A DNA stretch of 64,000 nt from a virus (taxonomy: Duplodnaviria; Heunggongvirae; Uroviricota; Caudoviricetes), in the IMG/VR virus record IMGVR_UViG_3300025131_000004. The stretch is one strand, 5' to 3'. The notes beneath the pieces were generated by a model, which saw nothing but the letters and a program-made list of their open reading frames with translations, made no database searches and had not been told where the DNA came from. Positions 1 to 13,843 of the stretch are shown here, piece by piece (the stretch's first letter is position 1; each line of letters starts with the position of its first letter). The position numbers were made by a program, and so were the translations under genes.

Positions 1-4
1 CCAT

Positions 5-2224
5 ATGAGCTCTGGAAATGCCGCTAGCAATCTATCGCCAGCATCTGCACGAGTAGACATTTACGGAAGAGGGACGGGTGGAGAGATCACTCTAATGGAC
101 GATGTGATCACCAAATTCGCCAAGAAGTTTGATGTGAATCCAGCAGTATTGGAGGATGTATATCTTCACCACGAAATGTCTGAGATATACCATGGCTCAC
201 GACGTGCAAAGAAAGTGCTGGGAAAGGTACCCAGCAATCTGTCTGATGCTCAAGCAGAGGCTGCCTCCTTTAAGGAGTTCTATGGGTCATCGGCGGGTCA
301 GTTTGGTAGTCACGAAGCGCCAGGGGTTATCGTCGATGAGCTGATGTATGGCGCTAAGATGGGTCCGGAGCATTATGCCGCTACGAAAAAGATGCGTATG
401 TGGGACATCAATCGGCCAGGTGTCGATAAGACGTATGCGACAAAAACAAGAAAGATAATTGCAGCATTCGAAAAGAACCAGCTACCAAAGTTCTCTGGAT
501 TCGATGATGCCTATAACACCATTCGGGGCCTTCCTCATAATGGAAAGGCAGGGGCATCACGTCGACGTAACACACACTTTGGATCTGGATATAAGGGAGA
601 TGAAGGGCTTACTGTCGGAGGTATTCTTTCTGGCGCAAACAAGCTCTTTATGGTTGGTGCCTCTGCCATTACAGGGTACGATCGCTTTGGTGTTCGAGGA
701 GCAATTGGTGGGGCAGCCCTTGGTATCGGCCTTGGCTTTGGAATGGAGCTTGGCAAGTTTGACCACGCAGAAGGAAATCTTGGAAAGACTCTTTGGAACG
801 TAGGACTTGAGGGCATAGGAACATCTGCAGGAGCCTCCATGCTTGCATCGTCGATGATGAAAGGGGCATTCTTCAGAGGGAAGCTGGGAAAGTACGGTAC
901 AGATGAGCAGCTTGTGGGCATGGCTGAGAGCCTAGGTCTTTCTCCTGAAATAGGAAAGGCAGGTGGCATGTATGGGATGTTGGGGAGATCTTATAGGCAA
1001 AAGATTGAAACTGCACTCCCAGGTAAGCTTGGAGAGATTCTGGGAAGAGGAGTGGAGGCTCAAACAGGATCTCCTCACATGTTGGATGCAGTTCTTCAGC
1101 ATGGTTCCATTCAAGCGATTCCTCCTCAAGAGTTCTTTATTGCGAATGCAAGAGATGTTATGTCTGGTGCTGCTGCGGGCTTTGTGGCATCAAGTCCCAT
1201 TGCATTCGGTTCGTACCTGTTCTCTGGAAAAGACGATGCTTACAACTCGATCGAAGGTCTTCCTCATAAGGGGATGGCTGGGGCCAGTCGTAGACAAAGA
1301 ACCGACTTCGGGTCTGGTTATCAAGGAGAAGATCAGGTTGGAGCCTTTGGCGGTATGGTGGGACTCGGAGCCACCCTCTATGCAGGTCGTGGCGCATACA
1401 GTGTTCGTGGAAACTTGATGATGGCTCGTGGCCACTGGCGTGGATACATGGACTTCTTCCATGGTACTCCGATTGCGAACAGAGCGAATATCTTGGCGGA
1501 AGGTCTTGTGCCCAATGCCAAGGACTGGGACAAGATCAAGCATCTGACTCCTACAGACCCTGCTCAGAAGGCTCTGTTCGCTCAAATTAGAGAGAAGGGA
1601 GAGAGGGTATTCTTCTCTGGTGAATCTTGGATTGCAAGAGCACATGCAAGTCAACAGGTAAAGCAGAACATTGGTCCTTTTATGGACAACATGCAAAAGG
1701 CCAAAGGTATGCTGGGTTATTTCCACCCTTCTGTTCATGGAGGAAAAGCAGAGGGAGCGATATTCAAGTTCCGCCTTCCGATGGAAGAGATCGCTTCTCA
1801 GACTGGCATCTTGGCTCAGTATGAAGCCATTACAGGGAGTGAAGGAGTTTCTAAGTTTCTCAAGGGATGGGGAGATGCATTTGCTTCTCATACAGGTCCT
1901 TCTATTGACCTATCAAGAGCAGGAGGGGTGGCTCCTGAACTCTTTAATGAGGTAATTCCGACAAGAGGAGGAGAGATTCTCTGGGGAGAGAAGGAGGTCC
2001 TAAGGGCTGCAGAAACCACAGGCTTTAAGCCCAATAAGGCAAAGGCTGCTGGAAGATTTGCTCTTGCAATGGCTCCAATAGTATTGGCAGGCTGGGGAGT
2101 GAACAAGATGTGGAATGCGATGCATACAGACGCGACTACAGACATGAAGAAGAAGATGTCCAGGAAGAATATTCAAGGACATGCTAATATGGATCCAAAG
2201 AGGCATATGAATATTTATGGCTAA
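5..2224 (+). CDS. Gly-rich multidomain putative ejected/core protein with repeated 36-aa motif and C-terminal ADP-ribosyltransferase-like domain (probably 5'-truncated by the window)
   Basis: 739-aa ORF, with the frame open to the window edge. Two copies of FSGxDDAYNxIxGLPHxGxAGASRRxxTxFGSGYxG; Gly/Ala hydrophobic helices; FFHGT..NILAEGLVP..RVFFS..ARAHA..GAIFKFRLP..GGEIL. Confidence 0.55.
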   Translation: MSSGNAASNLSPASARVDIYGRGTGGEITLMDDVITKFAKKFDVNPAVLEDVYLHHEMSEIYHGSRRAKKVLGKVPSNLSDAQAEAASFKEFYGSSAGQFGSHEAPGVIVDELMYGAKMGPEHYAATKKMRMWDINRPGVDKTYATKTRKIIAAFEKNQLPKFSGFDDAYNTIRGLPHNGKAGASRRRNTHFGSGYKGDEGLTVGGILSGANKLFMVGASAITGYDRFGVRGAIGGAALGIGLGFGMELGKFDHAEGNLGKTLWNVGLEGIGTSAGASMLASSMMKGAFFRGKLGKYGTDEQLVGMAESLGLSPEIGKAGGMYGMLGRSYRQKIETALPGKLGEILGRGVEAQTGSPHMLDAVLQHGSIQAIPPQEFFIANARDVMSGAAAGFVASSPIAFGSYLFSGKDDAYNSIEGLPHKGMAGASRRQRTDFGSGYQGEDQVGAFGGMVGLGATLYAGRGAYSVRGNLMMARGHWRGYMDFFHGTPIANRANILAEGLVPNAKDWDKIKHLTPTDPAQKALFAQIREKGERVFFSGESWIARAHASQQVKQNIGPFMDNMQKAKGMLGYFHPSVHGGKAEGAIFKFRLPMEEIASQTGILAQYEAITGSEGVSKFLKGWGDAFASHTGPSIDLSRAGGVAPELFNEVIPTRGGEILWGEKEVLRAAETTGFKPNKAKAAGRFALAMAPIVLAGWGVNKMWNAMHTDATTDMKKKMSRKNIQGHANMDPKRHMNIYG
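491..1327 (+). repeat. Two copies (491-598, 1220-1327) of a 36-aa intragenic repeat
   Basis: FSGFDDAYNTIRGLPHNGKAGASRRRNTHFGSGYKG vs FSGKDDAYNSIEGLPHKGMAGASRRQRTDFGSGYQG, 27/36 identical. Confidence 0.9.
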
Positions 2225-2402
2225 AAAAGAAAACATTGGTCCTATCAAGGACAGAAGGTATAGAGAGGCTACGGTGAATAGGAGGAGCGCCTTTACGAGG
2301 GTATTGTGCGACCCCACATTCGTACCCATCTTCATCAAGAGAACACTGGACAGCAAACCAGCGGAACATTTATTGGATCCGTTCGGTTTTAGGAATGCAT
2401 AA
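2217..2402 (+). CDS. Small basic hypothetical protein (61 aa)
   Basis: Fills the gap between two larger genes, overlaps the upstream stop, and ends in a TAATG overlap with the next gene. Confidence 0.6.
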   Translation: MAKKENIGPIKDRRYREATVNRRSAFTRVLCDPTFVPIFIKRTLDSKPAEHLLDPFGFRNA

Positions 2403-3286
2403 TGATCCCACAAGAACTATGGACCGATAGGGCGCTCGAGTATGAGGGCGTAGGTAGAATGCAGAATGCAATGATGGCCCGTGCCACAGGCACAGGTCGG
2501 ATTGGCCGGATGAGAGTTCGTCAAGGACTTTCGGCAGCTCGCAAAGGGTGGGCAACGATGGCAAACAAAGGTCAGGCCTGGGCGGCAGGAGAGTTCAGCG
2601 CCGGAGCTTGGCATGGAGCAGATGGTAAGAAGATCTCTCAACGAGCTCTGTGGAAATCTGATAGTCCTTTAGCAATGCTGCAAGAAGCGAAGTACACCAA
2701 GCCTGGTCAGCGGCGTGCCTTTGACAAATGGGGTAAGGGTGTAAATCCTGAGAAGTTCTTTGGAAGAGGAGCGGCTGGTCACCTGTTTAGGGGCGCTAGC
2801 AATACTGTCAAGAACACTGGCAGTGCCTTTGCGATGGGTGCACTCGGAGGCGGCTACGGGGCTCTTCTTGGGGGAATCTTTCTTCATGGCGGAGCCATGG
2901 GAATGTCAGGTAACAATGTAGCATCTCCATACGATGGATTCGTTCGAGGAGCTGTCCATACGGCAGCTGGATTCCTTGGATTCGATTTAGGTATGAGTGC
3001 AGGCGCGGCAGTCGGTGCGACATTAGGTTCGGTGCTTGGGCCCGCAGGTACCGTTATTGGTGCAGCAGTAGGCGGGCTCGCAGGCGCTATGGGCTTGGAA
3101 GCCGCGTCAGATGCTCCTTGGAAGATCGCAGAGATGGGATATGCGGCGACCAAACCGTTCGCTTCTCCTTTCCTAGATTCACAAAGAGCTGCTACAATGA
3201 GACAGAGGTCTATGAATATGATAAACCAGTCTGCCATGAATGCCAGAAGTGCATTGAGTATGGAAGCAGCTGGGTATCACCTATAA
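2402..3286 (+). CDS. Glycine-zipper membrane-type virion/ejection protein
   Basis: 294 aa; long GxxxG hydrophobic tract (GAAVGATLGSVLGPAGTVIGAAVGGLAG); C-terminal ATMRQRS..ARSALSMEA motif. Confidence 0.5.
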   Translation: MIPQELWTDRALEYEGVGRMQNAMMARATGTGRIGRMRVRQGLSAARKGWATMANKGQAWAAGEFSAGAWHGADGKKISQRALWKSDSPLAMLQEAKYTKPGQRRAFDKWGKGVNPEKFFGRGAAGHLFRGASNTVKNTGSAFAMGALGGGYGALLGGIFLHGGAMGMSGNNVASPYDGFVRGAVHTAAGFLGFDLGMSAGAAVGATLGSVLGPAGTVIGAAVGGLAGAMGLEAASDAPWKIAEMGYAATKPFASPFLDSQRAATMRQRSMNMINQSAMNARSALSMEAAGYHL

Positions 3287-3296
3287 GAGGTTTAAT

Positions 3297-3650
3297 ATGT
3301 GGAATAAGATGAATGGTGCTTTGAATAGCGCAAATGCTTGGATGAGAGCTGCAGAGAACAGGAACGTCGCTCTTGGTCTTGCTGGCGCGGCAGCTATTCC
3401 TGCTCTTTATATGGGAGGAACTACCGGAGCGGGCATGGCGGCAGGTGGTTATTTCGGTGCAACTCGAGGAGGGGCTTTGGCAGGAGCGACATTTGGCCAG
3501 ACCAGCTGGGGCAACAGGGCCATGCGAAGTGGTGGCATGATTGGAAAGACAAGCTTCTCGGGAAGAACTGCCACTAGAGTTGGTGGGGGATTGCTAGGAG
3601 CCGTCGGTGGAGGAATCGCTGGAGCAGCTCTCGGAGCTCTGTGGAATTAA
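3297..3650 (+). CDS. Small glycine-zipper protein (paralog A)
   Basis: 117 aa, starts MWN, GxxxG-rich; AGAGG upstream. Confidence 0.65.
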   Translation: MWNKMNGALNSANAWMRAAENRNVALGLAGAAAIPALYMGGTTGAGMAAGGYFGATRGGALAGATFGQTSWGNRAMRSGGMIGKTSFSGRTATRVGGGLLGAVGGGIAGAALGALWN

Positions 3651-3651
3651 G

Positions 3652-3951
3652 ATGTGGAATACACTTAAAACTAATGCGGAGCCTATCATGCAGGCAGTGA
3701 AAGCAAACCCGATAAAGGCTCTTGGCTACAGTGCTGTGGGCCTTGGCTCTATCGCTGGTGTAACAGGGATAAATGCCTTGGCGTATGAGCATGCAGGTGG
3801 TTTCTGGGGCTTCGCAGGTACAGGAGGTATCGCTGGTGCAATCACCGGCTATGCCGGTGGTGGTGGTGTGCGAGGAGGTATCGCTGGAGGGATCGCAGGG
3901 GGACTCCTTACTGGGTTCACGGCAATGGGGTCTCACGCTCTTTGGTACTAA
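3652..3951 (+). CDS. Small glycine-zipper protein (paralog B); likely start ATG 3652 rather than 3607
   Basis: Starts MWN right after the stop of the previous gene; GxxxG-rich like its neighbour. Confidence 0.65.
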   Translation: MWNTLKTNAEPIMQAVKANPIKALGYSAVGLGSIAGVTGINALAYEHAGGFWGFAGTGGIAGAITGYAGGGGVRGGIAGGIAGGLLTGFTAMGSHALWY

Positions 3952-4443
3952 ATGGCCTATTGTAAGTTCAGAAAAATAAAGAGAAGGACAAAGGATATAC
4001 TGGACCCCATGGGGACCCGACTTCCTTTGACAAAGAGGCGTAGTCGTAACAGAAAAGCTCGCCTCATGTCTCACCTCAAAAGACTAAGTTTTCAAAAGAA
4101 ATCAGCAGCGATGAAGCGAATCTACAACTCTCCGGAGTACAAGGCCTGGCGCAGGTCTGTCTTTGTCAGAGATAACTTCGCTTGTATCATGTGTGGCAGC
4201 GACGGATACGTTGAGGGACATCATATCCTTAGAAAATGGGACTACCCTGCATTGGTCTTCAACATGCATAACGGAGTCACTCTTTGTGGCCCGTCTACCA
4301 ACAAGAAGTCCTGCCATGGCAAGGTCACGGGAAAAGAATACAAGTACATCACTAAGATCATGAGTAAGATGGGTGATCTTCAGAGAGCTCAGTTCAGACA
4401 CATCTTAAAAAAGAAAGGAGTGAAACATGGACCGAGAAAGTAA
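3952..4443 (+). CDS. HNH endonuclease (terminase-adjacent)
   Basis: WRRSVFVRDNFACIMCG..EGHHI..NGVTLC..CHGK: HNH/zinc-finger signature. Confidence 0.85.
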   Translation: MAYCKFRKIKRRTKDILDPMGTRLPLTKRRSRNRKARLMSHLKRLSFQKKSAAMKRIYNSPEYKAWRRSVFVRDNFACIMCGSDGYVEGHHILRKWDYPALVFNMHNGVTLCGPSTNKKSCHGKVTGKEYKYITKIMSKMGDLQRAQFRHILKKKGVKHGPRK

Positions 4444-4480: not shown

Positions 4481-6523
4481 ATGGAAGGATTAACTCTTCA
4501 CCCAGCATGCATCCGTTGTAAGAAGAAGAATACCCTCGAGAAGGATATTGTTCTGGAAGACGGGACCACGGTGTTCAAAGCCGGAGAGTTCCCCATCCAA
4601 TGCAAAGGTATCCCTGCTGATTTCGGCCAGGTGGTAGACAAGGTCCTTGGTGACAAAAGAAGCTTCTTTGATAAGAATGAAGTTGAGATGCTTGAAGAAG
4701 GTCTCGACGCTACCAAGTGGGCAAAGAAGTGGTTGCTCGTTGATAAGGGTGGCTGGGAGCCGAGAGGTTGTACCCCACCCAACAAGCTTAAGTATGACCT
4801 TGATGACGATGCTGATATCTACCAAGAGATCATGCTCAAGTGTACTGCGAAGCGTAAGGTCTTCAGGATTGGACGACGTGGTGGAAAGACAGAGTCCATC
4901 TGTGTCAAGATGCTTCATCTCATTGACACCTGGCCTACGGGTCACTGTAAGATCCTTCTTGTCTGTCCTTTCAGATCACAGATCGATATTATCTACAAAA
5001 GACTCAATGAGTTGATCGCAGACTCTCCACGTCTGAAGAACCTCATCAAGCGCAAGGTCTCCAATCCATATCACGAGATCGAGTTTACCAATGGTTCCTA
5101 CATCCGTGGCTTCTCAGCAGGCACCAACTCTGGTGCTAATGCTTCTTCCGTACGTGGACAGGGTGGTGACGTTATCGTTCTTGACGAGACGGACTACATG
5201 AACCCTGGAGATATCGACTCCATCGCAGCTATCCTGATGGACCACGAAGACACTCAGCTATGGGCCTCATCTACACCCACAGGTCGTAGGGACAAGTTCT
5301 ATGAGTGGAGCTTCGACCCAGAATACAAGAACTTCCACTTCCCATCGATGGCGAACCCAAACTGGACCCACCGTATGGACCTTGAGTTCCGACGTACCCT
5401 TACCAAGGGCGGTTATATTCATGAGGTCCTTGCAGAGTTCGGAGACGACGATGCCGGAGTCTTCAGAAAGAAGGACATCGACTATGCCCTCAAGTGGGGC
5501 GGCAACTATGACTATGATGACAGCTACCATAGTCAGATCAATGCTCCAGGATGGGCCTATACGATCGGAGTGGACTGGAACCCGGTAAAGGGTACAGAGG
5601 TCATGGTCCTTGGTATTCATAGGTACACAAAAGAAGAGGCAGAGCTCGAAGGTGATTCTGCTCTTGAGGGAGAAGCATTCTTCAGGGTCGTTGACTCAAA
5701 GACCGTAGAAAGACAAGAGTTTACTGAAAGAGCGGCCAACCTGGAGATCATTCGTATGAATAGAAAGTGGGCACCGTTCGCTATCTATCTTGACTACGGT
5801 GGTGGTGGTGTCAATCACTTAGAGCAACTTAGAATCTTCTCTGCGACAAAGCCCGATGGAACTGCTGACGGTAGAATCAAACACATCACCAAGAGCATCA
5901 ACTTCTCTGGAAACATCGAAGCTTACGACCCTTGGTCCAAGAAGAAGACCAAGAAGCGTGCGAAGCAGATGATGATTGAAAATGCTCAGCGAAAGTTTGA
6001 GCAGCACAAGATTCAGTTGACGCAAGCAGATCCCATTTTGACAAAGCAACTAGAGAACTATATTATCTCTCGTGTGACTCAGACCGGAATTCCGGTTTAT
6101 GAAATGCAATCAGATGCGGTCGGAGACCACAAGCTTGATGCACTAGTTCTAGCATTGTTAGCAGTTCAGATGGAAGCGACCCAGTTCGGCAAGCCACGGC
6201 ATGACGCAAAGATGCGTGTCGCTCCTGGTCTCGGACAGGACATAGAGACTTCCGTAATAGAAGAACTTGGCAAGGCTGGAGTCAGCACCAAGCAACAGTT
6301 GAAGCTGGAGTTAGCCCCACAGCCTCGTGCTGTCAACGAAATGATCACACCGCGAACGGTGGTAAGGAGGAGTGACCATACTCATCGGTTCGCAAACGAT
6401 AGAGATCATGAAAAGGACTGGGACAGAAGATTATTAGCGCAACGCAAATCCAAGGTCAATAGAGGCAAGGGGTTTGGCAGGTTAAGAAATTCTCGAGGTC
6501 CACCAAGAAGATCGAACTTTTAA
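4481..6523 (+). CDS. terL: Terminase large subunit
   Basis: Walker A RIGRRGGKT; Walker B GQGGDVIVLDETD; coupling motif ASSTPTG; nuclease YTIGVDWN and DHKLDALVLALLA. Confidence 0.93.
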   Translation: MEGLTLHPACIRCKKKNTLEKDIVLEDGTTVFKAGEFPIQCKGIPADFGQVVDKVLGDKRSFFDKNEVEMLEEGLDATKWAKKWLLVDKGGWEPRGCTPPNKLKYDLDDDADIYQEIMLKCTAKRKVFRIGRRGGKTESICVKMLHLIDTWPTGHCKILLVCPFRSQIDIIYKRLNELIADSPRLKNLIKRKVSNPYHEIEFTNGSYIRGFSAGTNSGANASSVRGQGGDVIVLDETDYMNPGDIDSIAAILMDHEDTQLWASSTPTGRRDKFYEWSFDPEYKNFHFPSMANPNWTHRMDLEFRRTLTKGGYIHEVLAEFGDDDAGVFRKKDIDYALKWGGNYDYDDSYHSQINAPGWAYTIGVDWNPVKGTEVMVLGIHRYTKEEAELEGDSALEGEAFFRVVDSKTVERQEFTERAANLEIIRMNRKWAPFAIYLDYGGGGVNHLEQLRIFSATKPDGTADGRIKHITKSINFSGNIEAYDPWSKKKTKKRAKQMMIENAQRKFEQHKIQLTQADPILTKQLENYIISRVTQTGIPVYEMQSDAVGDHKLDALVLALLAVQMEATQFGKPRHDAKMRVAPGLGQDIETSVIEELGKAGVSTKQQLKLELAPQPRAVNEMITPRTVVRRSDHTHRFANDRDHEKDWDRRLLAQRKSKVNRGKGFGRLRNSRGPPRRSNF

Positions 6524-9488: not shown

Positions 9489-11579
9489 ATGGCTTTTTGG
9501 GACGATTGGTTCAAAAGTACAGACGCTAAGAAGCAGAGATCCAAGACGATTAGGATCTCTCGTGTCCGCACATTGATAGACCCTACACTCAATTACCCCC
9601 AAGCTCTGGGCGGTGGTCGTTGGTCAGGCGATGGCTTCAACGTACCTGAATACAACTTCCTTGAGATAGGTCAGGCAGAAGACACAGAGTCTTATGTAAT
9701 GCAGGCTCATCTAAAGAAGCTTGCACTGATGTTTAAGGAGGGCTTCGACTTCGTTGGTCAAGATGAGCAGTCTGTCCAGTATATCCTGAAGAGGATCTCT
9801 CAAATAGAAAGGGCCTGCTGTCATTCATTCTGGAATCTCCTTGTGGGTGTCGGTCATGACCTGATCAGATACTCCAACTCCTTCATGGTAAAGGTTCGCA
9901 AAGAATTCGATAACAAAGGCAGACCTGTCTCTGGAGGGCTGGTTCGAACAACTCCTGATGGAAAGAAACTTGAACCTATCGCTGCCTACTTCCGCCTCTC
10001 CCCTGAAACCGTAGAGATCAAAAGAAACAAGTCCAATGGAAAGGTAGAAAGATATCGTCAGGTAATGCCAGATGGATCCAAGAAGGAGTATCCAGCTCAC
10101 GACGTCATTCACTTCCACTTCAATCGCAAAGGTCACTTTGACGTGGGGACTCCTTCAATCATTCCAGTACTAGATGATATCCGTGCTCTTCGTAGAATCG
10201 AACAGAACGTAGAGATCCTGGTCTACCAACACCTCTTCCCGCTATACCAATACACAGTCGGCACAGAGGACGCTCCCGCACAGGTCTATACAGACGGAGA
10301 GTCTGAGATTGACCTTGTACGCAAAGAGATTGAGATGCTCCCTGCAGAAGGAATGCTCGTAACTCCAGAGAGACATGAGATCAAGCCTGTCGGAGCAGAG
10401 GGCAGTGCTCTAAAGGTAGAGGGATACCTAGAGCACTTCAAGAAAAGAATTATTGCTGGACTAGGAGTTTCCGCTGTAGACTTCGGTGACGGAAACACTG
10501 CCAACAGAGCTACGGCAGATAATATGTCAAGGCTCTTAATCGACAATGTTAAGTTTTATCAACAGGTTCTCTCTGATCAGATCAAGACGTTTGTGTTAGA
10601 TGAACTGTTATTGGAAAGCACCTTTGATGGCGACAAGCTATCTTTGGACAGAGCGGTACGTCACCGCTTCAATGAGATTGATACTGAACAACAGATCAAG
10701 GTAGATACGCATGCCTCCTTGATGTACCAGTCGAATGTCTGGACACTGAATGAGGCAAGAGAACGAATGAACAGGAATCCTCTTTCTCCTGGTGACGAGA
10801 GTGATCTTCACTTAGAGAAGGTTGAGAAGAGCATGCTTCAAGAGACCGCAAGGTTGGCTCCTTCTCCTGCAGCGGGGTCTTCTTCGGACGATCCTGCAAA
10901 GAAGGCTACGGCTACAAAGACCAGACCTTCTAATCAGCATGGGACCAAGAGTGGCCCAGAGAAGAAGCGTAGCTTTGTGGACATGGGGCTAGGTGAACAG
11001 TTCGACGAGATCAGAGACGACGTAATCTCTTTGATCAAGAGAGATGGAGATAGACTTAACCAAGGCTTGATTCGACAGACCATCCTTGCTGGAGCGACAG
11101 CTTCAAAACAAGAGTATAAGAGCAAGGTCTTTAACGCGATGGTCAGAGGAGCTAGAGCTGGTGGTCTTTCTCATAGCGATGCAGAGCAATTGGTCGGTAG
11201 GCGTATGGCGCCTATGATCACACGGTTCGATTCAGACATAGATCGTCTTTATAGACAGGTCAGTCATCTGATTGGAAATCTAGTTTCACAAAGAGGAGAC
11301 AAGTCTCCGGAGGTGAGGCTGGCATTCAACTCATTGAGGTACAGAACAAAGTTCATTGCTGCAACCGACATGCATCGTGCAGAGAACTTTGGAAAGGGTA
11401 TCGCCATGAATGCTCTTGGGCACGAAGTCGCGATCTCAACACAGCACAGTGATGAGGATGATATCTGTAAGGAACGCCACGGACAGGAAATACAGCTCTT
11501 GGCTTTGGGAATCGATGAGGTTCCTCCCTACCATCCCATGTGCCAATGTGATCTCACCCCAAAGAGGACAGATGATTAA
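9489..11579 (+). CDS. Portal protein with C-terminal MuF-like (minor head) domain
   Basis: Lies between terminase and protease; portal-like segments (LSPETVEI..VIHF..G..SIIPVLDDIRALRRIE; WTLNEARERM); C-terminal RTKFIAATDMHRA..C..VPPYHPMCQC. Confidence 0.8.
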   Translation: MAFWDDWFKSTDAKKQRSKTIRISRVRTLIDPTLNYPQALGGGRWSGDGFNVPEYNFLEIGQAEDTESYVMQAHLKKLALMFKEGFDFVGQDEQSVQYILKRISQIERACCHSFWNLLVGVGHDLIRYSNSFMVKVRKEFDNKGRPVSGGLVRTTPDGKKLEPIAAYFRLSPETVEIKRNKSNGKVERYRQVMPDGSKKEYPAHDVIHFHFNRKGHFDVGTPSIIPVLDDIRALRRIEQNVEILVYQHLFPLYQYTVGTEDAPAQVYTDGESEIDLVRKEIEMLPAEGMLVTPERHEIKPVGAEGSALKVEGYLEHFKKRIIAGLGVSAVDFGDGNTANRATADNMSRLLIDNVKFYQQVLSDQIKTFVLDELLLESTFDGDKLSLDRAVRHRFNEIDTEQQIKVDTHASLMYQSNVWTLNEARERMNRNPLSPGDESDLHLEKVEKSMLQETARLAPSPAAGSSSDDPAKKATATKTRPSNQHGTKSGPEKKRSFVDMGLGEQFDEIRDDVISLIKRDGDRLNQGLIRQTILAGATASKQEYKSKVFNAMVRGARAGGLSHSDAEQLVGRRMAPMITRFDSDIDRLYRQVSHLIGNLVSQRGDKSPEVRLAFNSLRYRTKFIAATDMHRAENFGKGIAMNALGHEVAISTQHSDEDDICKERHGQEIQLLALGIDEVPPYHPMCQCDLTPKRTDD

Positions 11580-11994
11580 CGAAGTTCTTCGAGAGCAAAA
11601 GAGGTTGGCTCAGCAAAGATATCGGGAGAATCACCCTGATAGAGTCAAGGCTCAGAAAGCGGCTTATTACGAAAAGAATAAAGAACGTGAACAAGAAAAA
11701 CAGAAAAGATATCGAGATCTTACCAAAGAGGAAAGAAAGCTTTATGATCGTAAATATAGAGTTAAGAGTAAATATGGCCTTGATTGGGATAAGTATAAAG
11801 AATTGATTTCTTCTGGTTGTGAAATATGTGGATCTATGCCCGAAGAAACTATTATGCACCTTGATCACGATCACTTATCTGGTAAGATTCGGGGCCCTCT
11901 GTGTATCCATTGCAATACTGCTTTGGGATCATTCAAAGATGATATTGCTTTATTGAAAAAAGCAGTTCAGTACTTAGAGAAGCAAGATGCGTAA
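11572..11994 (+). CDS. Free-standing endonuclease VII-type HNH homing endonuclease; likely start ATG 11572
   Basis: KYGL..CEICG..HLDHDH..IRGPLCIHCNTALG; visibly AT-rich relative to its flanks. Confidence 0.88.
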   Translation: MINEVLREQKRLAQQRYRENHPDRVKAQKAAYYEKNKEREQEKQKRYRDLTKEERKLYDRKYRVKSKYGLDWDKYKELISSGCEICGSMPEETIMHLDHDHLSGKIRGPLCIHCNTALGSFKDDIALLKKAVQYLEKQDA

Positions 11995-12025
11995 GCGCCT
12001 GAGTAGGAAATTGGAGAAAAAGAGA

Positions 12026-13843
12026 ATGGATAAGTTTATTAGGTTCAGAGACTATATCGAGATCAAGCCAGTCAAGCTCACTGATGGTAGGCTCGCGCAG
12101 AAGTTTGCAGACAACCACCTTGGAGCAGGACAGTCCTTGGAGGTCCTTGCAGACCTGACATTCGCAGGACTGAAGACAAAGAACCGCGCTCTCTACCTGC
12201 CAGACGAAGTCGCCAGAGGAGTGAAGTCTTGGCTCAAGCCATACGGAAAGCCAATCCAGCTACACCATGAGGATCACTTAGATCCCATTGGCAGGATCAT
12301 CGACGCCAGATACATCAACACCATGGACCAGGTCATGCACGCCAACGACTCTGTAAGGGACTACGTAAAGCTTAATGACTTTTGGAAGGTCAAGGACAAG
12401 GCTGCGGTCTTTGGAGAGATGCTAAGACTTTCCAAGGATGAGACCTATCAAGGTCTTGGCCGTATCCGTGGACACCTGAGAATCACTGATAGAGATGCAA
12501 TTGAGAAATTGGCAGACGGAAGATACCTTACTGGTTCTGCTGGCTTCAGAGCGGCACATGCCTGGTGTTCTACCTGCATGATCAACGATGAACCGACCGA
12601 CTGGGCAGACGATGGTCCTTGCGACCACTCTCCTGGTGAAGACTACAAGGGTCTTGAGTGTGTACTTATTCCTGGTGGAATCGCCTACGATGAGTACTCT
12701 TTCGTCAACCACCCAGCTCTCGTTCATTCTCAGGTCGTAGAGCTCGGAACTGCAGGGTTTGCGGACAAGCGCGTTGATATCAAGATGGATGACAAGGAAA
12801 TCCCTAAAGGATTCTATGAGCTTTTTGTTCGTAATAAGGATGAAAATGGGGATGTGTCTGTTATTAATATAGAGGACGAGGAAGACAATAATATCCTCGA
12901 CTTCCAAACAAGATTTACCGACATGCTGATGCTTCTAGACAAGAAGACAGAATCGGCAGAGGATATCGATCCGACAATTAAGGATCCAGAACAGAGGGAG
13001 ACAAATATGCTAAGCCTCATGAACATTACCAAGGACACAGCGACTAACTATGCAACGCTGGTCGAACACCTACCAGAGGACGCAAAGCTGACTGATGAGA
13101 AGTTAGCTGAGCTAGATGACTCCGCCTTCATTGGCGTAGGTAGAACATTCCCAGTGCCAGACGCTGCTCACGCAGAAGCCGTGAGAAAGGTCCTTGACCA
13201 GGTTGAGGAGGGAGAGGGGCTAAAGACCCTGCTTCTTTCTGAGCTTGACAAGGCTGAGAAGAAGTTTGATGATTCTCAGGGAAATACAGATACTTCCGAT
13301 GACGCAGGAGTTATTGGAGAGGGAGATGGGGAAACTGACCCCGTCACCAAGCTACAGGATGAGATTGAAGATCTAAAGGTTAAGCTTTCTGAGAAAGATC
13401 AGATGGTTGAGCTACTTCGTAGAAACCTCACCTCCGTAGAAGACGAGCTTAACCGAGCCAACGAGGCAGCTCTTGAGTTTAACAAGAGAGCTCATGATCT
13501 CGTGGCCGAGAAGATCGTTGACAAGAAGGTCGCTCTCGGAGAGACTGTTGAAGACAGAGATACCGTGATTAAGGATTTTGCATCCAGAACATGGGAGTCA
13601 CTGTCTGACACGCTAAAGGATCTGGAAGGAAGAACCTCCACTCCTGGTCTTGCCAGAGACACTGTAGAAGATGCAATCGTCGACGATCCGACGAACGAGA
13701 CTGAGGCTGACCTCACCAAGTTCGCAGCAATCGTTGAACAATACAAGGATCATAAGCTCTATAAGGGCGCAGCCTGGGCCGAAATGTGGCTCCAGAACGT
13801 CAAGCATCAGGGACTTTTCCCAGCTGACGCAAAGATCCAATAA
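12026..13843 (+). CDS. Prohead protease fused to acidic linker and coiled-coil scaffold; likely start ATG 12026
   Basis: KPIQLHHEDHLDPIGRI (His), DAIEKLADGRYLTGSAG (Ser), EYSFVNHPA; C-terminal coiled coil; GGAG RBS at 12013. Confidence 0.8.
   Translation: MDKFIRFRDYIEIKPVKLTDGRLAQKFADNHLGAGQSLEVLADLTFAGLKTKNRALYLPDEVARGVKSWLKPYGKPIQLHHEDHLDPIGRIIDARYINTMDQVMHANDSVRDYVKLNDFWKVKDKAAVFGEMLRLSKDETYQGLGRIRGHLRITDRDAIEKLADGRYLTGSAGFRAAHAWCSTCMINDEPTDWADDGPCDHSPGEDYKGLECVLIPGGIAYDEYSFVNHPALVHSQVVELGTAGFADKRVDIKMDDKEIPKGFYELFVRNKDENGDVSVINIEDEEDNNILDFQTRFTDMLMLLDKKTESAEDIDPTIKDPEQRETNMLSLMNITKDTATNYATLVEHLPEDAKLTDEKLAELDDSAFIGVGRTFPVPDAAHAEAVRKVLDQVEEGEGLKTLLLSELDKAEKKFDDSQGNTDTSDDAGVIGEGDGETDPVTKLQDEIEDLKVKLSEKDQMVELLRRNLTSVEDELNRANEAALEFNKRAHDLVAEKIVDKKVALGETVEDRDTVIKDFASRTWESLSDTLKDLEGRTSTPGLARDTVEDAIVDDPTNETEADLTKFAAIVEQYKDHKLYKGAAWAEMWLQNVKHQGLFPADAKIQ

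Follow-up and report, generated by a model that had tools for sequence, protein, structure and literature searches.

A near-invariant 36-residue motif at the domain junctions of a polyvalent phage polyprotein, a candidate docking or cleavage signal for head maturation

That phages can inject enzymes together with their genome is known, and giant 'polyvalent' proteins are predicted to act in this way; the question is by what means many unrelated enzymes come to be loaded, separated and delivered. It is raised here by the first gene in a 64,000-nucleotide stretch of a tailed-phage genome (IMG/VR record IMGVR_UViG_3300025131_000004; the whole stretch analyzed is called the window below). This gene, P0123, encodes a giant polyvalent polyprotein in which a 36-residue peptide motif recurs between cargo domains. 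An initial annotation had noted two copies, identical at 27 of 36 residues, that separate a globular region, a Gly-zipper, membrane-like region and an ADP-ribosyltransferase (ART)-like domain; we located both copies exactly, in the frame of a single open reading frame (ORF), reproduced their identity and found the flanking regions as described. The motif is very probably a genuine junction module of the polyprotein. As for its function we favor, at a probability of roughly 40%, a docking or cleavage signal that would act during head maturation on a packaged and injected polyprotein. The parts of the gene on which the argument turns are these:

2 to 2,224 (+): last 740 codons and stop of the polyvalent polyprotein gene P0123, an ORF open at its 5′ end.
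491 to 598 (+): motif copy 3 of 4 (70.7 bits), in the frame of ORF 2–2,224, encoding FSGFDDAYNTIRGLPHNGKAGASRRRNTHFGSGYKG.
1,220 to 1,327 (+): motif copy 4 of 4 (75.9 bits), in the same frame, encoding FSGKDDAYNSIEGLPHKGMAGASRRQRTDFGSGYQG.

The window comes from the minus strand of a longer IMG/VR record (81.7 kb, 41% complete by CheckV), and the 357 nt that precede it there already contain a third motif copy. Longer assemblies, one of them a 194.9-kb ENA contig, were reached through the neighboring 294-aa protein; in these the start of P0123 lies 4,025 nt upstream of the window and the full gene encodes 2,083 aa, a call that is identical in two independent assemblies. A check for more copies upstream, as the initial annotation had advised, yielded two, at residues 711–748 (copy 1, a variant with the sequence GGKDDHNVIEGLPHGWFGSKRKYNTDFGSGY) and 1274–1313, which join the two window copies at residues 1505–1544 and 1748–1787. 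The first part of P0123 runs from a DnaQ-like exonuclease through an unassigned region and SNase to copy 1 and the Gly-rich hydrophobic and Lys-rich regions behind it; the second part comprises copy 2, a globular cassette that we call X1314, copy 3, a further Gly-rich hydrophobic region, copy 4, the ART-like cassette, a hydrophobic helix and a basic tail. A profile of the motif matched no other ORF in the 64-kb window or in the 81.7-kb record.

Aligned on their FGSG anchor, 442 copies from 169 proteins give the 36-residue consensus FSG-K-DD-x-YNTIEGL-x-H-x-G-x-A-x3-R-x3-TDFGSG-[WY]-x-G, in which the FGSG columns are partly fixed by the anchoring (the regular expression permitted variants there, and none occurred). 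The edges of the motif are sharp: across these copies each position between −29 (Phe) and +6 (Gly) carries 2–4.3 bits of information, against ~0.3 bits directly outside. Near-invariant are S, DD, N, I, E, G, L, G, A, R, T and FGSG. Mean identity is 60% between phages and 64% between copies in the same protein, and since copies within a protein are barely closer than copies from different phages, the constraint appears to be shared and old. For comparison, identity is 34–39% for the large terminase (TerL), 35–49% in the main portal alignments and 33–42% for the ART-like cassette. The initial annotation had also judged the motif far better conserved than the sequence between its copies. Two 36-mers taken at random from other parts of the protein have a mean of 2.3 residues in common and never more than 15 (192,369 pairs). 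Several familiar short motifs were considered for the core and set aside: TDFGSG can be read as a kinase DFG-like segment, but real kinase loops lie elsewhere in the relatives that have them and P0123 has no kinase, and EF-hand, GDPH, NPTH and Rossmann GxGxxG patterns do not fit by position or context when judged by eye.

How the motif sits relative to the cargo was mapped over the 169 proteins with the motifs masked and with iterated profiles for nine cassette families. None of the 277 recognized domain instances placed in this way contains a motif, and the 169 proteins show 119 different architectures, which bears out the earlier description of a modular element that punctuates cargo domains. 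SNase may come first, in the middle or last, and the motif core is unchanged whichever cassette stands on either side; the residues right after it are conserved per cassette, reading FGSGWDaLR before kinases and FGSGYqGPNPw before another family. It had likewise been proposed that different effectors are appended, and DnaQ-like exonuclease, SNase, protein kinase, ART-like and other domains indeed vary among phages, in contrast to the invariant flanking domains that the initial annotation had named as counting against its own view. The motif runs straight on into the domain behind it, and it opens the sequence, at residues 2–10, of two minimal proteins of 569 and 580 aa (from contigs of 110 and 74 kb) whose genes directly follow an unrelated upstream gene. 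Because the motif can be N-terminal and conservation downstream of it is cassette-specific, the natural unit looks like the motif together with the domain that follows. In the related locus L012 the same slot is occupied by a 339-aa single-kinase protein (9,887–10,903) whose decayed motif is split into IKGLGH, an 18-residue insert and TPFKSKW, with FGSG lost; this protein may be a natural case of a motif that has relaxed for want of domains to keep apart.

At the nucleotide level the copies differ. Copies 3 and 4 share 75 of 108 bases, use different codons for 14 of their 27 identical residues and have no exact run longer than 11 nt; compared pairwise, the three canonical copies of P0123 share 69–71% of bases, with different codons at 12–14 of 27 identical residues and longest exact runs of 11–12 nt. 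Such codon differences and short runs indicate selection on the peptide rather than the DNA and copies of some age, and by this comparison the motif is an old repeat kept by peptide-level selection. They bear directly on the proposal that the repeat is a DNA-level homology patch through which phages recombine cassettes, its peptide conservation being secondary. The strong shuffling of cassettes, with the motif at every boundary, is what such a patch would produce, but about half of the identical residues are encoded differently, which is the mark of peptide selection, and the remaining homology is too little for efficient recombination. We therefore consider this proposal very improbable and in essence excluded.

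The motif is widespread in uncultured phages. A profile built from 17 copies and searched exhaustively against 1.84 billion protein cluster representatives matched 518 of them at E ≤ 1e-3, 372 at E ≤ 1e-10 and 128 at E ≤ 1e-30; the best 169 of the 518 matched proteins carry 2–7 copies each. Overall the motif occurs 1–7 times in one giant gene per phage, and several of the source contigs are ~190–205 kb long. Judged by their head genes, the carriers are a clade of uncultured phages resembling Bacillus phage 0305phi8-36. Searches by tblastn with the protein and with a motif copy found no match in 50,697 cultured-phage (INPHARED) records, even at E ≤ 1, and one pattern scan of 185,579 cellular species genomes had a single hit, in a Scalindua metagenome-assembled genome, where 14 residues of the motif are matched in a 31-codon fragment that does not amount to a gene. 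The initial annotation had allowed that the motif might prove to be part of a known globular domain; no family in Pfam, PHROG, NCBIfam or the PDB sequences covers it, and a literature search for motif strings gave chance matches only. A search for related loci with the whole protein returned nothing, whereas the motif alignment used as query did recover them. Across 11 phage loci the motif is confined to a single ORF per locus, so the fusion is retained.

Where this gene lies suggests what its product may be part of. In the window the polyprotein gene is followed by genes for the 294-aa Gly-zipper protein, two small Gly-rich proteins, an HNH endonuclease and TerL, then by four further genes, and after these by the portal, an endonuclease VII, a 618-aa protein, a 430-aa protein and an HK97-fold major capsid protein. 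The neighbors that matter most here are:

2,402 to 3,286 (+): Gly-zipper protein, 294 aa (Pfam Gly-zipper match below the cut-off; BLASTP match of the C-terminal tail to 0305phi8-36 gp115, E 8.8e-8).
3,297 to 3,650 and 3,607 to 3,951 (+): ORFs for two small Gly-rich hydrophobic proteins.
4,481 to 6,523 (+): TerL (phrog_2, E 3.2e-25), the marker of a conserved slot.
11,987 to 13,843 (+): predicted prohead protease/scaffold fusion, 618 aa, homologous to 0305phi8-36 gp123.

The position upstream of the terminase, remarked on in the initial annotation, recurs in every related locus that extends so far: TerL and portal follow the motif gene in 9 of 9 such IMG/VR loci, and in the window and these nine loci the polyprotein gene lies 2–5 kb upstream of TerL and portal. 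By portal, the nearest cultured relatives, at ~30–36% identity, are Moorella phage MTATph1, Bacillus phages including 0305phi8-36, and Acinetobacter phage ME3. The 0305phi8-36 genome has gp112, gp113, gp114, gp115, gp116 and TerL in this order, with portal, protease/scaffold, decoration protein and major capsid protein later; gp113, gp114 and gp116 are marked in its GenBank record as virion proteins by mass spectrometry, and the gene before our polyprotein matches gp112 (E 1.5e-9). Because the polyprotein occupies the slot of these virion-protein genes, we infer that it is virion-associated, the basis for this being that synteny and the gp115-like tail of one neighbor. Gly-zipper neighbors also have weak matches to tape-measure and tail-lysin families. 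The 618-aa protein is 31% identical over 223 aa to the gp123 protease/scaffold (E 4.5e-25), with an additional match in the scaffold region, and its H93/H94 and S184 are invariant in six homologues; by homology and by these conserved His and Ser residues it is identified as an HK97-type prohead protease/scaffold.

In the reading we favor, the polyprotein would enter the head and reach the host along with the DNA, each unit of motif and following domain would be a cargo cassette, and the motif would be an address label read by the head-maturation machinery. The reader might be the HK97-type protease/scaffold fusion or another conserved head component; within the procapsid this machinery would first dock the polyprotein and then split it into its individual effectors, much as the T4 capsid-targeting sequence and gp21 operate on internal proteins and Alt, with the near-invariant Glu-Gly of TIEG or the invariant FGSG as the likeliest scissile region. 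Three sets of observations lead us to a docking or processing signal: a single gene stays fused, which suits one loading event, and a constant label stands before variable cassettes; the label can be N-terminal, has no confident fold of its own and decays in a protein with a single cassette; and the phage has an assemblin-fold protease fused to a scaffold. AlphaFold2 (AF2), run on the motif with its flanks from a 144-row alignment, gave a mean predicted local distance difference test score (pLDDT) of 58.6 and no confident fold, as would be expected of a linear signal. In its nucleases, kinase and ART-like domains the cargo is similar to enzymes that phages inject to take over the host, T4 Alt among them (PMC5512222).

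A number of points weigh against this reading. Cleavage, packaging and binding, like the capsid loading, processing or translocation proposed in the initial annotation, are predictions for a clade with no cultured member. The motif, at 60% identity, is better conserved than its proposed reader, whose homologues are 25–30% identical; a co-evolving partner would account for such an excess less well than chemistry would, or a universal ligand such as DNA. Known prohead-protease sites, moreover, need far less than a 36-residue island at 60% identity. Phage 0305phi8-36 has the same protease/scaffold and Gly-zipper virion proteins and no motif, so the motif is not needed to load that class of protein. 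In 14% of copies Glu stands in place of the motif His, and copy 3 in the window reads TIRGL instead of TIEGL, with Arg at a position that is Glu in ~78% of copies; if the motif Glu were the cut site, the junction at copy 3 may stay uncut.

The high conservation raises the alternative that the motif cleaves itself, by an N–O acyl shift at the Gly-Ser of FGSG or by Asn cyclization at YN-T, and so frees the cassettes with no dedicated protease. Conservation above that of every phage protein compared, and independent of lineage or neighboring domain, is what chemistry would produce, and no protease domain is common to all the polyproteins. Known autoprocessing sites, such as those of SEA, Nup98 and GPS domains and Asn-cyclization sites, use polar residues of the kinds that are invariant or near-invariant here (Ser, Asp-Asp, Asn, Thr, Arg and FGSG). 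To our knowledge, however, all known autoprocessing sites lie in a folded domain that strains the bond, and AF2 gives the motif no confident fold; its only His is the residue that can be Glu, a motif at the extreme N-terminus would free merely a short peptide, and there is no similarity to any known autoprocessing family. We consider self-cleavage unlikely on balance. It does enter a broader proposal, in which the motif is a self-sufficient, portable cargo signal: whatever domain stands behind it would enter the head, be released there, through either the head protease or chemistry of the motif itself, and be delivered into the host. We put this forward tentatively, as possible rather than probable.

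DNA as a universal ligand is the premise of another alternative, namely that the motif core is a helix-hairpin-helix (HhH)-like element that binds DNA independently of sequence and tethers the cassettes to the packaged genome, the cargo being kept in the head and leaving with the DNA. The only profile match in the PDB is to the first HhH of Hef (1x2i), at E 1.3, where Hef VEGLPHV-SATLARRLLKHFGS aligns with motif IEGLsHkGlAgasRkqlTdFGS, and the pattern G-hydrophobic-x-H-x-G...A...F-G-S recurs in the first HhH of 30 LigA domains, whose corresponding columns hhalign aligns exactly. AF2 predicts a short helix, a loop and a helix over the core, the only parts to reach a pLDDT of 65–78 (the first helix covering DDAY, the second G-x-A-x3-R-x3), Arg or Lys is conserved in the second helix, and it is the C-terminal two thirds of the motif that survive in degenerate copies. 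Yet hhalign against the 30 LigA HhH2 domains is not significant (P 0.12, probability 0.5%), no Pfam HHH family matches any of 144 copies, and HHH_5 finds nothing in the record at E ≤ 10; in three tests membership in the HhH group (Pfam HHH, HHH_2, HHH_5) was thus negative. In addition, the spacing from hairpin to FGS is one residue longer in the motif, a single HhH does not fold alone, and the conserved N-terminal FSGKDDxYN has no HhH counterpart. We regard a DNA-tethering role as improbable.

Immediately before the motif, a moderately hydrophobic Gly/Ala/Leu stretch of ~15 residues is present on average (−46 to −31 from the FGSG anchor, 442 copies), and in 26% of copies a strongly hydrophobic 19-mer lies no more than 60 residues upstream. 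Both would fit a structural hinge or membrane-proximal element with no signaling role, which together with that stretch would anchor the chain in the host envelope or thread it through at ejection; the channel-forming ejection proteins of T7 or P22 are an analogue for such a translocation unit. The neighboring Gly-zipper proteins, with their weak tape-measure and tail-lysin matches, are in keeping with this, as are some minimal proteins that have an N-terminal hydrophobic helix followed by the motif. Against it, many copies have no hydrophobic stretch, among them those that stand at the start of a protein; hydropathy over the 442 copies shows the motif itself to be polar and charged; and a hinge would not need at least 13 near-invariant residues. 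We give a purely structural role little credence. Copy 3 of the window (491–598) is itself among the copies without an upstream hydrophobic stretch.

The remainder of the polyprotein in the window consists of cargo and connecting regions:

2 to 481 (+): C-terminal part of the recurrent globular cassette X1314 (P0123 residues 1332–1503), present in 27 of 169 motif proteins.
599 to 1,219 (+): Gly-rich hydrophobic region followed by a linker whose last ~20 residues are Gly/Ala/Leu-rich, a typical pre-motif stretch.
1,373 to 2,040 (+): predicted ADP-ribosyltransferase-like cassette with an invariant HGT motif (AF2 and Foldseek).
2,045 to 2,221 (+): hydrophobic helix and 40-aa basic C-terminal tail ending ...MDPKRHMNIYG.

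For the ART-like cassette, an AF2 model from six homologues reached a pLDDT of 76.8 and a predicted template modeling (pTM) score of 0.74, and almost all of its best 40 Foldseek matches in the PDB are ARTs (pertussis S1, cholera A1, LT, Rhs TreX), with a best E of 1.7e-4, a probability of ~1.0 and modest TM values of 0.31–0.64. The assignment of the C-terminal cassette to the ART fold, already suggested by the initial annotation, thus holds at fold level in the predicted model. Tested for the catalytic H-Y-E or R-S-E residues, the six homologues have an invariant H-G-T, a conserved GY and no invariant Glu; the Pfam ART models do not match the cassette, and the ART-PolyVal atlas lead is weak (0.79). 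The cassette is terminal in P0123, but it lies between two motifs in five other phages, and no stand-alone relatives of 140–448 aa were found. X1314 has the invariant pattern H-E-x-x-E...H...E...R...Y; language-model leads are weak and point to SLT/lysozyme-like families only (0.83–0.87), and its profile retrieved only a His-tag artefact from the PDB. A hydrolase, whether wall-cutting or metal-dependent, would be a fitting cassette for a protein that is ejected. In relatives the cassettes include kinases (Pkinase, ABC1, APH), SNase, RNase_T and PolB-type exonucleases, and the polyprotein of one relative, P0043, has intein/LAGLIDADG matches.

The Gly-rich region that follows copy 1 (P0123 residues 749–900) is duplicated after copy 3 (residues 1545–1700; window 599–1,060), with the shared pattern ...GYDRFG.RGAIGGAA.GIGLG...SMLASSMMKG..., so that the internal duplication seems to have involved the motif and the Gly-zipper together rather than the motif alone. 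By eye, basic tails with an aromatic residue or His near the end occur on the polyprotein (window 2,102–2,221), on other polyproteins, on Gly-zipper neighbors (3,160–3,283 in the window) and on 0305phi8-36 gp114 and gp115, with the related loci L016, L017 and L022 among those compared; the endings read ...MDPKRHMNIYG, ...MEAAGYHL, ...ARQLHR and ...WTKHHIG. The only BLASTP match among these tails is that of the 294-aa protein to gp115. They may constitute a second signal shared by the gene cluster.

Some features of the neighboring genes are recorded for completeness. The genes of the two small Gly-rich proteins (3,297–3,650 and 3,607–3,951) overlap by 44 nt in different frames, and the second starts with GTG. 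Two endonuclease genes are inserted in an otherwise conserved head-gene order, the HNH gene (3,952–4,443) directly before TerL and the endonuclease VII gene (11,410–11,994) overlapping the end of the portal gene. TerL is ~1,000 aa long in two related phages (L016, 13,184–16,195, and L012, 13,436–16,618), and in L016 it has an intein with a LAGLIDADG domain by Pfam. Inserted in the protease/scaffold fusion is a four-ligand (C-C-C-H), zinc-ribbon-like segment that does not vary among six homologues, and behind it comes an acidic coiled-coil tail.

One short peptide, better conserved than terminase or portal and present in several hundred protein clusters, thus marks the start of each cargo module. 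Were it a portable signal, this would explain how freely effector cassettes are swapped in these phages, it would provide a tag for loading chosen proteins into phage heads, and the phages would embody a natural plug-and-play system of protein delivery with a previously undescribed processing or targeting signal. Should it be only a linker, it would still be a clean marker for a large, uncultured 0305phi8-36-like clade and its effector repertoire.

Among known systems, the closest in position is 0305phi8-36 itself: its gp113–gp116 occupy the same slot between a gp112-like gene and TerL and have the same Gly-rich hydrophobic character. The window phage, unlike 0305phi8-36, has the giant polyprotein and the motif; gp113–gp116 are encoded by small genes and have no enzyme domain by eye, no domain-library scan having been made of them. 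The core of the motif shares G-[LI]-x-H-x-G...A...F-G-S and a predicted helix-loop-helix with the (HhH)2 domains of Hef/XPF and NAD-ligase, a likeness that falls short of significance in the hhalign comparison described above; it differs from them in being a single unit rather than a pair, in its extra conserved N-terminal third and in matching no HHH profile. The capsid-targeting sequence of T4 (IPI–III and Alt) is ~10 residues long, N-terminal, ends in L/I-x-E, occurs once per protein and is removed after its Glu by gp21, an assemblin-fold prohead protease. Our motif resembles it as a short peptide that stands before cargo, and the cargo that T4 packs and injects includes an ADP-ribosyltransferase (PMC5512222). 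Unlike the T4 signal, the motif is 36 residues long, mostly internal, present in up to seven copies and without sequence similarity to it; the context of its Glu is N-T-I-E-G, which is not of the T4 type, and cleavage is conjectural here.

The nearest parallel in content is the class of polyvalent proteins described by Iyer, Burroughs, Anand, de Souza and Aravind in 2017 (PMC5512222), which are predicted to be packaged, delivered and then released by proteolysis. Like them, the polyprotein combines several unrelated conflict or takeover enzymes (nucleases, kinase, ART) in one phage-encoded polypeptide beside portal and terminase: P0123, with its DnaQ-like exonuclease, SNase, X1314 and ART-like cassette, lies within the range of 2–15 unrelated effector or enzyme domains, and the phage-encoded, portal–terminase context is present in the window and the nine related loci. 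Their hub domains (zincin-like MPTase, MuF, DdrB-ParB and an embedded assemblin-like peptidase) were not found by Pfam in P0123 or seven related ORFs, nor were the corresponding Pfam families present in the precomputed Pfam lists of 120 relatives, and the main text of that paper contains neither 'linker' nor 'glycine'. Polyvalent phage proteins as such are therefore already known (PMC5512222); what sets this clade apart is that, in place of their hub domains, it has a repeated, near-invariant junction motif.

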